Shown piece after piece: positions 57,939 through 60,014 of a DNA stretch of 64,000 nt; the first letter of the stretch is position 1, and every line of letters begins with the position of its first letter. The notes below the pieces were generated by a model that saw only the letters and a list, made by a program, of their open reading frames with translations, was not told the origin of the DNA and searched no databases. This DNA is from a virus. Taxonomy: Duplodnaviria > Heunggongvirae > Uroviricota > Caudoviricetes. A program made the translations under genes and the position numbers. The stretch is taken from IMG/VR virus record IMGVR_UViG_2541047596_000003, one strand, 5' to 3'.

Positions 57939-58862
57939 ATGCGCAAGTTAACACACGAAGAACAAATTGCGGCTATTGCGAAAATTAATCCTGATGTTGA
58001 AGTGCTGGGAGAAATTACCGGAAATCATAAAAAAGTGTTATGCCGTTGCAAGGTTTGTGATCATGAGTGGTCGGCTACACCTTGCAACCTAAAACACGGG
58101 CGCGGTTGCCCGAAATGCGCTGGGAAGATGAAGTTATCGCACGAAGAACATATTGCCGCTATCGAGAAAGTTAATCCTGATATTGAAGTGTTGGGTGAAA
58201 TTATTAATGACAAAACAAAAGTATTATGCCGCTGCAATATCTGTAGTCATGAGTGGTCGGCTACACCTTGCAACCTAAAACACGGGCGCGGTTGCCCGAA
58301 ATGCGGAATATTAAAAGGCGCACAAGGAAGGACATTAACACACGAAGAACACATCACAGATATAGCCAAAGTTAACACTTATGTTGAAGTATTGGGAAAA
58401 ATTAAGAACCATAGAGATAAAGTCCCGTGCCGCTGCAAGATCTGTAGTCATGAGTGGTCTGCCAGGCCTTGCAACCTTAAAAGCGGGTACGGCTGTCCAA
58501 AATGCGCGAAATACGGTTTCCTTCGTCATGAGTATGGCAAACTTTACATCATGGTTGATGATCTGGAAGTGCCTACACAAATGAAAATTGGGGTAAGTGT
58601 TCAGGAAAATAAACGAAGAAACGATATATTAAAAAGCGCACATAAAGCAGGCGTTAGAATTCCTAATTTGCATATCGTGAAAACGTTAGAAGGGCCAACC
58701 GAAAATATACATGAACTAGAAAACACGATGCATAAGGCTTTTAGCAATTATAAAATTAACTTTCCTGTAAAATTTGATGGTAGCAATGAGTTTTTTTATT
58801 ACAGGCCGGAAGTATTCGACATGGTAGAAGAAGCATTTAAAGAGATTGTTTGCTGCCAATGA
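57939..58862 (+). CDS. Protein with three tandem zinc-ribbon repeats and a C-terminal T5orf172/GIY-YIG-like domain (307 aa)
   Basis: Three about 61-aa repeats each with CRC..C...W......C.....G..CPKC; C-terminal GKLYIMVDD...KIGVS motif. Confidence 0.65.
   Translation: MRKLTHEEQIAAIAKINPDVEVLGEITGNHKKVLCRCKVCDHEWSATPCNLKHGRGCPKCAGKMKLSHEEHIAAIEKVNPDIEVLGEIINDKTKVLCRCNICSHEWSATPCNLKHGRGCPKCGILKGAQGRTLTHEEHITDIAKVNTYVEVLGKIKNHRDKVPCRCKICSHEWSARPCNLKSGYGCPKCAKYGFLRHEYGKLYIMVDDLEVPTQMKIGVSVQENKRRNDILKSAHKAGVRIPNLHIVKTLEGPTENIHELENTMHKAFSNYKINFPVKFDGSNEFFYYRPEVFDMVEEAFKEIVCCQ
57948..58520. repeat. Intragenic tandem triplication (about 190-nt units) encoding the zinc-ribbon repeats
   Basis: Identical 42-mer CACCTTGCAACCTAAAACACGGGCGCGGTTGCCCGAAATGCG at about 58078 and 58262; third copy diverged. 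Confidence 0.6.
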
Positions 58863-58895
58863 ATATACAAAATGTAAACCGGAGGATATAACATT

Positions 58896-60014
58896 ATGTG
58901 TCAAAGAAAGATTAGTGATGAACAGCTAATCACTGAACATAACAACGGTCTAACGTATAAACAGATCGCCGAAAAATACGGAATGGCAAAACGCAACGTC
59001 GAACGCCTGGGCGCACGGTTGGCGAAACGCGGTTTAATATCCACGCGTCGCGCGCCGGGTTTTGGCGTCAATGGTGAGTCATTGCTCGTCGATAAGGATG
59101 GCAATGTGATTATGCGCTGGATTAAAACAGCCCGTGATCGCGATGAAATGGAAAGGCTAATGCAATCTGCTTGTGACGCCTTCACGGAAGAAATACCCCG
59201 CGCGGAGGCCGTGCCAGTGCCGGAAATTGATTTCCAAAAAAGCCTGGCCCTTTATCCGGTATTTGATCTGCATATCGGGGCGCTTGCTCATAAAGCTGAA
59301 TGCGGCGAGAGCTACGACACCGGGATCGCTGAGCGCGTGCTAAATGATTTCTTCGACTACGCGGTAGGCGCTGCACCGATGTCTGAAAAAGCTGTTTTGC
59401 TGTTAGGAGGGGATGTGCTCCACACTGACGGACTGTTACCAGTGACGCCATCAAGTAATCACGTTTTGGATTGTGATTCACGCTACGCAAAACTTGTTTA
59501 CGTGGCGATCCGGTCGGTCCGGCGTGCTGTAGGTAAGATGTTGTTGAATCATAAGGATGTAGAAATTCAGGTGTTATCAGGTAATCACGACCAGTCAGGA
59601 ATGATCTGGCTACGTGCGGCGCTGGCGGCTTTTTACGAAGATGAACCGCGCGTTACTGTTGATGTGTCACCTGCCATCGTCCACCACACACAGTACGGCA
59701 AAACATTCCTTGCATATCATCACGGTCATACTATCAAAAAACCTGAAAATTTGTTGTCTGCCTGCGTCTCTGACTGGCGAGAAGACTTTGGCAAGTCTGC
59801 GGCGGTTTACGCTCATTGCGGGCACTGGCATCATCAACGGCTAATTGAATCATCGTTAGGCGTTGTTGAGTATCACGGCACGTTAGCGGGTAAAGACGCT
59901 TACTCAACTAATGGCGGCTGGCGGTCACGTCGTATGGCAGCGGTGATTATTTACAGCCAGGATTATGGTGAGATCGGGCGCTTTGTTTATTACCCTGAAT
60001 ATTCCATTTTGTAA
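58896..60014 (+). CDS. HTH-containing calcineurin-like metallophosphoesterase (372 aa)
   Basis: N-terminal HTH (LTYKQIAEKYGMAKRNVERL); phosphoesterase motifs DLH, GGDVLH, GNHD, HHGH, GHWHH. Confidence 0.65.
   Translation: MCQRKISDEQLITEHNNGLTYKQIAEKYGMAKRNVERLGARLAKRGLISTRRAPGFGVNGESLLVDKDGNVIMRWIKTARDRDEMERLMQSACDAFTEEIPRAEAVPVPEIDFQKSLALYPVFDLHIGALAHKAECGESYDTGIAERVLNDFFDYAVGAAPMSEKAVLLLGGDVLHTDGLLPVTPSSNHVLDCDSRYAKLVYVAIRSVRRAVGKMLLNHKDVEIQVLSGNHDQSGMIWLRAALAAFYEDEPRVTVDVSPAIVHHTQYGKTFLAYHHGHTIKKPENLLSACVSDWREDFGKSAAVYAHCGHWHHQRLIESSLGVVEYHGTLAGKDAYSTNGGWRSRRMAAVIIYSQDYGEIGRFVYYPEYSIL

Follow-up and report, generated by a model that had tools for sequence, protein, structure and literature searches.

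The window analysed here, a 64,000-nucleotide stretch of DNA, is a prophage from E. coli and falls in the mEpimmI (mEp021-like) group that was described in PMC11893012. It is 99.9% identical to a prophage of E. coli M1/5 and 86-90% identical to phages of the mEp021 group. Between the replication initiator gene and the helicase gene lie two adjacent genes transcribed in the same direction with a gap of 33 bp, hereafter g1 (57939-58862, plus strand, encoding 307 amino acids) and g2 (58896-60014, plus strand, encoding 372 amino acids), neither of which is discussed in the mEpimmI paper (PMC11893012). RefSeq labels g1 just as a "zinc-ribbon domain-containing protein" and g2 mostly as a "hypothetical protein", and NCBIfam offered nothing informative for either product. 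On the evidence of its orf, PHROG 681 and Pfam, g1 can now be named as a free-standing T5orf172-type homing-endonuclease-like gene, and g2 as a lineage-core HTH-metallophosphoesterase of PHROG 704 ("DNA repair exonuclease").

An Rfam search of positions 57400-60200 at E ≤ 1 returned no match, and a promoter and terminator scan gave counts close to the shuffle expectation. A long hairpin with a U-run directly upstream of g1 (57840-57924) was rejected as an RNA element because it folds no better than shuffled sequences (z -1.8). The 375-bp non-coding stretch on the 5′ side of g1 was rejected as a replication origin, the iteron-like array being inside the initiator gene, and the published nut sites were rejected as a feature of this region, as the mEpimmI paper (PMC11893012) puts them elsewhere.

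Zinc modules and nuclease domain of g1

A preliminary description of this DNA had read g1 as three tandem zinc-ribbon repeats followed by a C-terminal GIY-YIG/T5orf172 domain, and this architecture was borne out in both parts. The g1 protein matches PHROG 681 ("endonuclease") at 3e-62 and the Pfam families DUF4379, CapR and T5orf172. Its first part (57939-58517, plus strand; delimited by TRF and Pfam) consists of three tandem treble-clef zinc-ribbon modules of about 62 amino acids each (residues 1-63, 64-130 and 131-193), which TRF detects as a repeat with a period of 186 bp. The modules are 69-75% identical to one another at the amino acid level and invariant in CxCxxC...CPKC, and DUF4379 and CapR each match three stretches. 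From its sequence, the array is a putative DNA-recognition array.

The T5orf172/GIY-YIG nuclease domain comprises residues 191-307 (58509-58859, plus strand). PF10544 (T5orf172) scores 25.2 bits, above its curated threshold of 20, MUG113 scores 23.4 against a threshold of 22.3, and the GIY-YIG alpha/beta fold is present. Two residues, R226 in the first helix and E261 in the second, are invariant in 20 homologues and are carried on the helices that bear the catalytic pair in GIY-YIG enzymes; judged by topology, they would be equivalent to R27/E75 of I-TevI and to E180 of Odn. Sequence searches of the PDB with g1 (phmmer and profile) yielded only a marginal DUF4379 match. The G+C content drops to 33-40% in the 3′ half of g1; g2 and the helicase gene are at about 50%.

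Relatives of g1 in metagenomes include frameshifted and truncated copies. The closest full-length relatives outside the lineage, with 47-53% amino acid identity, belong to Vequintavirus phages, one of them being annotated as "putative homing endonuclease". At the two Vequintavirus loci inspected, the gene is located just downstream of an anaerobic ribonucleotide reductase gene, and the relative in WalterGehring lies between the anaerobic ribonucleotide reductase gene and its activator gene. Ribonucleotide reductase genes are a classic, textbook homing site.

Barth et al. 2023 (PMC10448857) described homing endonuclease genes of the T5orf172 type whose zinc fingers (CapR/DUF723/DUF4379) are repeated; these genes are variably present beside replisome and other essential genes and undergo recombination between repeats. 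The same authors note that those of ICP1 are putative, none having been verified by experiment. g1 matches this free-standing class. Like g1, the ICP1 genes such as gp165 and gp174 (PMC10448857; PMC8096241) encode tandem N-terminal CapR/DUF4379-type zinc modules arranged as "beads on a string" ahead of a C-terminal T5orf172 domain; they too are free-standing, beside replisome genes and variably present among close relatives, their repeat modules are gained and lost in frame, and an HNH-AP2 class of endonuclease is found nearby. In contrast to these genes of a virulent vibriophage, g1 belongs to a temperate E. coli phage/prophage lineage, its zinc motif, for which DUF4379 is the best Pfam match, reads CxCxxC...CxxC where CapR has CxxC...CxC, and its site is also used by non-nuclease Bro/Rha/KilAC genes. 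Among the GIY-YIG homing endonucleases of phage T4, I-TevI differs in being intron-encoded, in combining a zinc finger with an HTH and in the order of its domains, whereas g1 is a free-standing member of the T5orf172 subfamily with three repeated zinc modules and a C-terminal nuclease.

A variable slot occupied by g1

The distribution of both genes was determined in the 35 E. coli genomes, out of 5,426, that contain the helicase gene, and in 7 related phages. The 35 genomes with g2 are the same 35, out of the 5,426, that have the helicase gene, and g2 is also present in all seven phages, whereas g1 is present in 12 of the 35 prophages and two of the seven phages. The preliminary description had proposed that the pair was a two-gene insertion, with both genes acquired as one module whose products would cooperate, either as an accessory to replication or in defence against phages or plasmids. 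The genes do adjoin each other in the same orientation, only 33 bp apart, both encode DNA-binding and phosphodiester-hydrolase domains, and both are missing between the initiator and helicase of P22-type replicons, as had been noted. However, they do not co-vary (35/35 prophages for g2 versus 12/35 for g1), g1 is swapped for unrelated genes or for nothing while g2 stays, the two genes differ in G+C content and selective constraint, and the g2 family is found alone in about 2,000 phages. PADLOC found no convincing match to either protein (the best being PDC-S57 at E 3.6e-4, confined to the nuclease domain, and a CARF model with E 0.027), which argues against a defence module. Joint acquisition and action are therefore largely refuted by the presence/absence data and very improbable; g2 in particular is universally present in the replication module of this lineage, which tells against an insertion for that half of the pair.

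The part of the locus that does vary is a sharply bounded cassette, slot 1, at approximately 57913-58857. Its 5′ end (57913-57938, plus strand; set by homology breakpoints) carries the leader and ribosome-binding site that belong to g1 itself. Homology of the backbone to relatives in which the slot is empty (MagusPhagus and E. coli GF66.2) ends at 57912 and restarts at 58858. An empty slot has about 9 bp between the two backbone ends and reads ...GCGCGTTTTACGGAAAATAAATATACATTCTGTAAACCGGAGG... in that allele. Elsewhere the slot contains Rha plus KilAC, Rha, Bro-N plus KilAC, or DUF559 genes, with conserved neighbours throughout: the initiator gene on one side, the g2 and helicase genes on the other. 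Since most of these alternative occupants are regulator-like Bro/Rha/KilAC genes and not nucleases, slot 1 may be a general site for accessory genes. The g1 alleles at the same slot have one zinc module (mEp013), three (the window and LP-26) or six (mEp021). Within the first 300 bp of g2, a search for g1-linked flank polymorphisms, as expected of a protected cleavage site or a co-conversion tract, found none; this segment shows general mosaicism, for example a right flank common to LP-26, which has g1, and M15, which has DUF559.

The g1 alleles have diverged at synonymous sites (dS 0.23-0.47) to about the same depth as g2 (0.35-0.58), and purifying selection acts on g1 (dN/dS 0.2-0.3). This combination fits a gene that has long been resident or is useful better than one that invaded recently. 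Accordingly, g1 might be a domesticated homing endonuclease, serving either as a nuclease against satellites, rival prophages or co-infecting phages, or as a DNA-binding regulator in the manner of CapR or of I-TevI autorepression. The model for the first role is Odn of ICP1 (Gp88; PMC8263062), which like g1 joins a T5orf172 nuclease domain to a borrowed DNA-binding domain and resides at a variable locus where Bro-N/Rha-type genes are found as well. Catalysis by Odn needs a conserved glutamate, E180, of which the invariant E261 of g1 is the putative counterpart; Odn binds through a domain that mimics a satellite RepA and has a proven role against satellites (PMC8263062), whereas g1 has generic zinc modules. 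Co-option of T5orf172- and CapR-domain proteins thus has published precedents in Odn and CapR, the slot also accepts Bro-N, Rha and KilAC genes of regulator or antirepressor types, and g1 adjoins the replication initiator, replication origins being the targets of Odn. Against domestication, g1 is missing from two thirds of close relatives, some copies are truncated or frameshifted, and the nearest outside relatives lie beside ribonucleotide reductase genes; domestication is considered possible but unlikely.

The metallophosphoesterase g2

The view of g2 as an N-terminal HTH joined to a calcineurin-like phosphoesterase was upheld by five invariant motifs, an Mre11-like fold and membership in PHROG 704, which g2 matches at 3e-139 (residues 4-368 on profile positions 2-387 of 390). 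Purifying selection on the gene is strong (dN/dS 0.03-0.08), and its family has tblastn matches in 2,044 of 50,697 phage records, or about 4%. The tri-helical HTH (58908-59030, plus strand; residues ~5-45) is placed by AF2, with helices at residues 8-16, 21-28 and 32-44, and by weak profile matches: Pfam HTH families, PHROG 3855 at 9e-5, and the C-terminal domain of the LuxR-type protein DevR. The metallophosphoesterase domain (59235-60011, plus strand; residues ~114-372) is placed by its motifs and by Foldseek. All five motifs of such enzymes (DxH, GDxxD/H, GNH[DE], H and GHxH) are present; across 27 sequences with identities as low as 57%, D124/H126, G172-D173..H176, G229-N230-H231-D232, H276-G277 and G309-H310..H312 are invariant and H278 is nearly so (at least 90%).

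The preliminary description had also proposed a domain search of both proteins, which identified the domains of g1 by Pfam and missed the phosphoesterase domain of g2: the Metallophos models gave no match to g2 even at E<0.1, and sequence searches of the PDB (phmmer and family profile) reached no phosphoesterase. The family is too divergent for detection by sequence alone, so the phosphoesterase assignment is based on the fold, the motifs and PHROG 704. Foldseek against the PDB gave 52 matches at E≤1e-3, and all 50 of those listed have the metallophosphoesterase fold, some of them being catalytically inactive. DNA-bound Mre11 ranks first (E 1.9e-6), followed by Vps29, LpxH, PolD DP1, Rv0805 and GpdQ; TM-scores are modest (0.37-0.45), and cyclic-nucleotide and lipid phosphodiesterases nearly equal Mre11. 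Mre11/SbcD, the best structural matches, share with g2 the calcineurin-like two-metal fold and the five motifs including GDxxH and GNHD, but the identity is about 11%, the Metallophos models miss g2, g2 has an extra N-terminal HTH, and the gene for a Rad50/SbcC partner is not adjacent. The immediate neighbours are g1 and the helicase gene, and an SbcC-like gene was absent among the ten orfs of the left operon that were scanned. For lack of such a partner, g2 may at most work like an Mre11-type enzyme and is not classed with Mre11/SbcD.

Other members of PHROG 704, annotated as "DNA repair exonuclease" or "putative phosphoesterase", occur in T1-like phages (Drexlerviridae), Webervirus, Kagunavirus and others, with the same combination of HTH and phosphoesterase. 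Over its full length, g2 has 66% amino acid identity to its homologue in Hanrivervirus, 44% in Kagunavirus and 31% in Vibrio phages. In several families a homologous HNH-AP2 gene is directly downstream. Outside the mEpimmI lineage, members follow helicase, VRR-NUC or Dam genes or have lysis or tail genes, not replication genes, in their neighbourhood, in contrast to the position of g2 between the initiator and helicase genes of a temperate phage. A search of the literature for functional work on the family retrieved genome descriptions only.

Because the Foldseek scores of Rv0805 (a cyclic-nucleotide phosphodiesterase), GpdQ and LpxH come near to that of Mre11, g2 might instead be a phosphodiesterase or a phosphatase with small molecules or proteins as its substrates, such as host immune signalling nucleotides degraded in anti-defence, with the HTH-like domain in another role. 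Homologues near lysis genes in T1-like, Vibrio and Rhodobacter phages, the lack of a Rad50/SbcC partner, and the very wide distribution of the family in virulent phages, as is often seen for counter-defence genes, are consistent with such a role. Motif II, however, is an invariant GDxxH. This is the Mre11/SbcD form of the motif, GDxxD or GDxVDRG being the form of phosphodiesterases and protein phosphatases. Together with the conserved N-terminal HTH, the setting of the gene between initiator and helicase in the mEpimmI lineage, and DNA-bound Mre11 as the top fold match, it leaves a non-DNA substrate as a minor possibility.

Paired leaders and a second slot

The near-identical leaders reported in the preliminary description do exist, but the genes they precede are g2 and the helicase gene, not g1 and g2, so that they flank g2. 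Leader 1 (58860-58898, plus strand) is the translation-initiation region of g2, TGAATATACAAAATGTAAACCGGAGGATATAACATTATG, and is found on the 5′ side of g2 in slot-empty genomes also. Leader 2 (59997-60035, plus strand), the translation-initiation region of the helicase gene, overlaps the last codons of g2 and is conserved in 10 of the 10 lineage loci compared. The two are identical at 35 of 49 positions, with an alignment score about 6 standard deviations above that of random 48-mers from the window, and the exact 13-mer TGTAAACCGGAGG occurs in the window at positions 58873 and 60010 only. The leader of g1, GCGTTTTAAGGAGTTGGAACGATG, is unrelated to both. Leaders 1 and 2 are paralogous translation-initiation regions of the conserved backbone, present where the slot is empty, and not the sign of modular acquisition for which they had been taken. 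That g2 brought its leader along from T1-like phages was also considered and rejected, the leaders being unrelated there.

A second slot between g2 and the helicase gene (59990-59999, plus strand; defined by BLAST breakpoints, annotations and Pfam) is empty in the window. In mEp021 and mEp515 it contains an HNH_3-AP2 homing endonuclease gene (Pfam HNH_3 at 2e-21, plus AP2).

Interpretation

We consider it likely that g1 is a mobile selfish gene in a swap-prone slot and g2 an independent, fixed core phosphoesterase. g1 resembles the mobile, selfish homing-endonuclease genes already known from phages; the homing-endonuclease-like selfish unit that the preliminary description had offered as one possibility suits g1 well. 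The three nearly identical zinc modules would read a DNA site, and when phages co-infect or a phage meets a prophage, the C-terminal nuclease domain would cleave a relative that lacks the cassette, whereupon repair by recombination from the g1-bearing genome would copy g1 into the break. Recombination between the repeats would change the number of modules and presumably retune target specificity. The position of g1 is hypervariable and intergenic, just 5′ of the ribosome-binding site of g2. Selfish nuclease genes appear to settle directly 5′ of each leader, T5orf172 or DUF559 genes before g2 and HNH-AP2 genes before the helicase gene (mEp021 and mEp515).

g2, by contrast, is a fixed and strongly constrained gene of the mEpimmI replication operon that was not inserted on the timescale of the lineage. 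It is predicted to be an HTH-tethered two-metal phosphoesterase, with the GDxxH of motif II and the nearest folds pointing to an Mre11/SbcD-like DNA nuclease that most likely processes DNA ends or intermediates of replication or recombination. A quite improbable alternative is that g2 was the cargo of a "homing-endonuclease island" bracketed by the T5orf172/DUF559 landing site upstream and the HNH-AP2 landing site downstream; co-conversion would have moved it between virulent T1-like phages and mEpimmI, where it would have become a fixed, perhaps obligatory third part of an initiator-nuclease-helicase module for replication, a module missing from P22-type replicons.

Both genes are new members of already known kinds, and the finding is largely ordinary insofar as g1 is a known kind of phage gene and g2 a widely shared one. 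The locus is nevertheless a clean natural series, in cultivable phages of E. coli K-12, for asking whether T5orf172 genes home: it offers the empty site, alleles with one, three and six zinc modules, and unrelated replacement genes, and would also reveal how the number of modules sets the choice of target. With g2 fixed between initiator and helicase, the mEpimmI lineage is likewise a tractable place to ask what the g2 family does.

In mEp010, an annotated homing endonuclease is likewise located in the region of slot 2. The HNH-AP2 lineage of this slot also follows a g2 homologue in Kagunavirus and Vibrio phages.

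Genomic context of the two genes

The g1 gene (57939-58862, + strand) encodes a 307-aa protein with zinc modules and a T5orf172 domain, and the g2 gene (58896-60014, + strand) encodes a 372-aa HTH-metallophosphoesterase. The pair is preceded by a Lin1244_N/O-like replication initiator gene (56517-57563), and beyond g2 lies a DnaB-family helicase gene (60033-61448). In sequence, the region matches a prophage of E. coli M1/5 at 99.9% identity and phages mEp021, mEp010, mEp013, mEp044, mEp515, mEp554 and MagusPhagus at 86-90%; it belongs to the mEpimmI group, Nus-dependent temperate coliphages reported in 2025 in a paper that does not discuss g1 and g2 (PMC11893012). 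The helicase has 57% sequence identity to P22-type gp12, the gene of which directly adjoins initiator gene 18; therefore, the comparison with P22 in the preliminary description was fair.

Distribution of g1 and g2

The preliminary description interpreted g1 and g2 as a two-gene insertion, an interpretation contradicted by their distribution. By megablast, g2 and the helicase gene match the same 35 of 5,426 complete E. coli genomes, and g1 matches just 12 of these prophage-bearing genomes; among phage isolates, g2 is present in all seven and a g1-type gene in two. When the window was aligned by pairwise BLAST with ten related loci, the backbone breakpoints fell at 57912 and 58858. At this site (slot 1), MagusPhagus and E. 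coli GF66.2 have only ~9 bp between the breakpoints, and the alternative occupants are a DUF559 protein of 351 aa or the non-nuclease genes Rha with KilAC, Rha alone, or Bro-N with KilAC (mEp515). Therefore, the variable segment is essentially the g1 orf with its own ribosome-binding site, swapped or missing where g2 is kept. The 3′ half of g1 has a G+C content of 33-40%, compared with ~50% for g2 and for the helicase gene, and dN/dS (Nei-Gojobori) is 0.03-0.08 for g2 and 0.20-0.31 for the g1 nuclease domain.

An extra TCTGAGGCG is found at the left junction of T5orf172 and DUF559 cassettes and is absent from empty and Bro/Rha-type sites. E. coli LP-26, which carries g1, and E. coli M15, which carries the DUF559 gene, have in common TCTGAGGCG, the right flank and a ~177-bp spacer between cassette and g2 (3064-3239 of LP-26 locus L011; 3406-3582 of M15 locus L004), and are also alike over the first ~120 bp of g2. 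These shared stretches suggest that one nuclease cassette replaced the other by flanking recombination.

Near-identical leaders, said to precede g1 and g2, had been taken as a sign of modular acquisition. Two similar copies do exist, but they precede g2 and the helicase gene, not g1: the window has two exact copies of the 13-mer TGTAAACCGGAGG (58873 and 60010), and the ~40 bp around the copies are identical at 35/49 positions, ~6 sd above random window segments, while the g1 leader (GCGTTTTAAGGAGTTGGAACGATG) is unrelated to both. All lineage members compared, even those whose slot 1 is empty, retain both copies, which are therefore part of the backbone. The best interpretation is that the copies are paralogous translation-initiation regions on either side of g2 and not marks of joint acquisition. 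The g2 homologues of T1-like phages and Kagunavirus have different leaders.

g1 as a homing endonuclease-like gene

The g1 protein consists of three tandem modules of ~62 aa (TRF period 186 bp, 85% matches), mutually 69-75% identical with an invariant CxCxxC...CPKC, and a C-terminal domain that scores above the curated cut-off for T5orf172 in Pfam. Three stretches match DUF4379 ("probable treble clef zinc finger", 1.3e-20), and the modules also match the CapR homology domain (3.5e-16). Residues R226 and E261 are invariant and lie in the helices that bear the catalytic pair of GIY-YIG enzymes; cleavage by the T5orf172 nuclease Odn requires the corresponding glutamate (PMC8263062). R226 and E261 are predicted to be equivalent to these catalytic residues. 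The window modules have extra cysteines (C49, C111 and C178, in TPCNLK or RPCNLK), which are probably not zinc ligands because the mEp021, mEp013 and LP-26 alleles have Ser, Tyr, Asn, Asp or Arg at these positions.

Barth, Dunham and Seed described a class with which g1 agrees in architecture, setting and behaviour (PMC10448857). Its members are free-standing T5orf172 homing endonuclease genes with repeated CapR/DUF723/DUF4379 zinc fingers; they vary in presence among close relatives, are located close to essential genes such as those of the replisome, frequently adjoin other endonuclease classes, and recombine between internal repeats. All of these features were found for g1, which counts as a new example of this kind of nuclease gene, whether selfish or co-opted. 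Slot 1 alleles have the same nuclease domain but differ in the number of zinc modules, with one in mEp013 (178 aa), three in the window and LP-26, and six in mEp021 (495 aa). Relatives in metagenomes include truncated and frameshifted copies; among P0129-P0133, P0144 and P0146, several are 103 aa long (the nuclease domain alone) or switch frame close to the C-terminus (...EFFLLQA...), consistent with decaying endonuclease genes. Beyond the lineage, the full-length genes most similar to g1 belong to Vequintavirus phages (47-53% identity), one of them annotated as "putative homing endonuclease". At both Vequintavirus loci inspected, the gene is just downstream of an anaerobic ribonucleotide reductase gene; in WalterGehring, the reductase gene is interrupted by a further endonuclease gene and has its activator gene downstream.

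Homing by the putative T5orf172 endonucleases of ICP1 has not been verified experimentally (PMC10448857), and a search for g1-specific flank polymorphisms and co-conversion tracts found none. Homing is also not the only route into slot 1 to consider, as non-nuclease Bro/Rha/KilAC genes occupy it too. Among g1 alleles, synonymous divergence is as deep as for backbone genes, and the protein is under constraint; g1 may therefore be a long-standing resident that benefits the phage. The nuclease Odn (PMC8263062) and the repressor CapR are precedents for co-option of such domains.

g2 as a predicted DNA nuclease

The g2 protein does not match the Pfam Metallophos models, and its family profile reached no phosphoesterase among PDB sequences. 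Along its entire length it matches PHROG 704 ("DNA repair exonuclease", 3e-139), the five phosphoesterase motifs noted previously are all invariant in 27 homologues, and the matches listed for its structure model (pLDDT 76.8) are all of the metallophosphoesterase fold, the best being Mre11 (E 1.9e-6). At the N-terminus, a three-helix bundle gives weak matches to HTH domains. Thus the original observation holds, with both genes confirmed by ORF listing at the coordinates given, except for the placement of the leaders.

A tblastn search detected the family in 2,044 of 50,697 phage records, with 66% identity to g2 in T1-like Hanrivervirus, ~60% in Klebsiella T1-like phages, 44% in Kagunavirus and 31% in Vibrio phages, and the homologues in these other phages have no g1-like neighbour. 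The g2 protein is a lineage-core member of a common, very widespread phage phosphoesterase family, and its gene is fixed in the lineage. A literature search found no functional study of the family.

Motif II of g2 is an invariant GDxxH, a form associated with Mre11/SbcD rather than with phosphodiesterases or protein phosphatases. Together with the ranking of Mre11 first in the fold search and the conserved HTH, it makes a DNA-directed nuclease the most likely function, predicted with moderate confidence. Three points count against this prediction: a Rad50/SbcC partner is absent, cyclic-nucleotide and lipid phosphodiesterases score almost as high as Mre11 in the fold search, and g2 homologues of other phage families are located close to lysis or tail genes. 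A small-molecule or protein substrate is rather unlikely. As a DNA nuclease, g2 might plausibly process ends or replication/recombination intermediates. The leftward operon encodes an Erf-family annealing protein and SSB (53320-54365, − strand), of which g2 is a candidate partner because no recognisable exonuclease was found among the ten left-operon orfs scanned nearby. Upstream of this block are genes for a Q-like antiterminator, a NinG/Rap-like protein and DNA methyltransferase (45314-48336, − strand), an order unexpected for a single lambdoid-type genome that may be the group's own architecture or a mosaic.

The site between g2 and the helicase gene (slot 2, 59990-59999) is empty in the window and contains an HNH_3-AP2 endonuclease gene in mEp021 (5035-5538 of locus L002) and mEp515 (5174-5728 of L003). 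In mEp021 the insertion rewrites the end of g2, with ...YRPEMVGCHDVG in place of ...YYPEYSIL. Outside the lineage, g2 homologues are likewise directly followed by an HNH_3-AP2 gene in Kagunavirus SCS92 and Vibrio phage 49E27-1 (5128-5598 of L009 and 4681-5190 of L012), which makes three unrelated phage groups with this arrangement; the encoded proteins share 34-41% identity with one another. Situated between two endonuclease genes, mEp021 g2 is arranged as in the "HEG island" that Barth et al. describe (PMC10448857). This bracketing leaves room for such elements having moved g2 between phage lineages, an event considered improbable.

Other features of the replication module

In the linker region of the initiator gene, four copies of GGGTCA(T/G)GA with 11-bp spacing (56907-56947) look like an iteron array and form a candidate replication origin, by analogy with lambda, the ori of which is located within gene O. 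Between the initiator gene and slot 1 are ~350 bp of non-coding sequence (57564-57912), 89-95% identical across the lineage, with a long hairpin at the end (57840-57920) followed by TTTT; this stretch had no Rfam match and folded no better than shuffled sequences, and it may be a terminator. The initiator region of E. coli strains 190 and N1286 has two unrelated genes in place of its N-terminal part (an HTH protein of 135 aa and a protein of 171 aa; 965-1899 of strain 190 locus L007, aligned to 56250-57011 of the window) and retains its 3′ part from 57011 onward; by alignment, this junction is another recombination boundary within the replication module.
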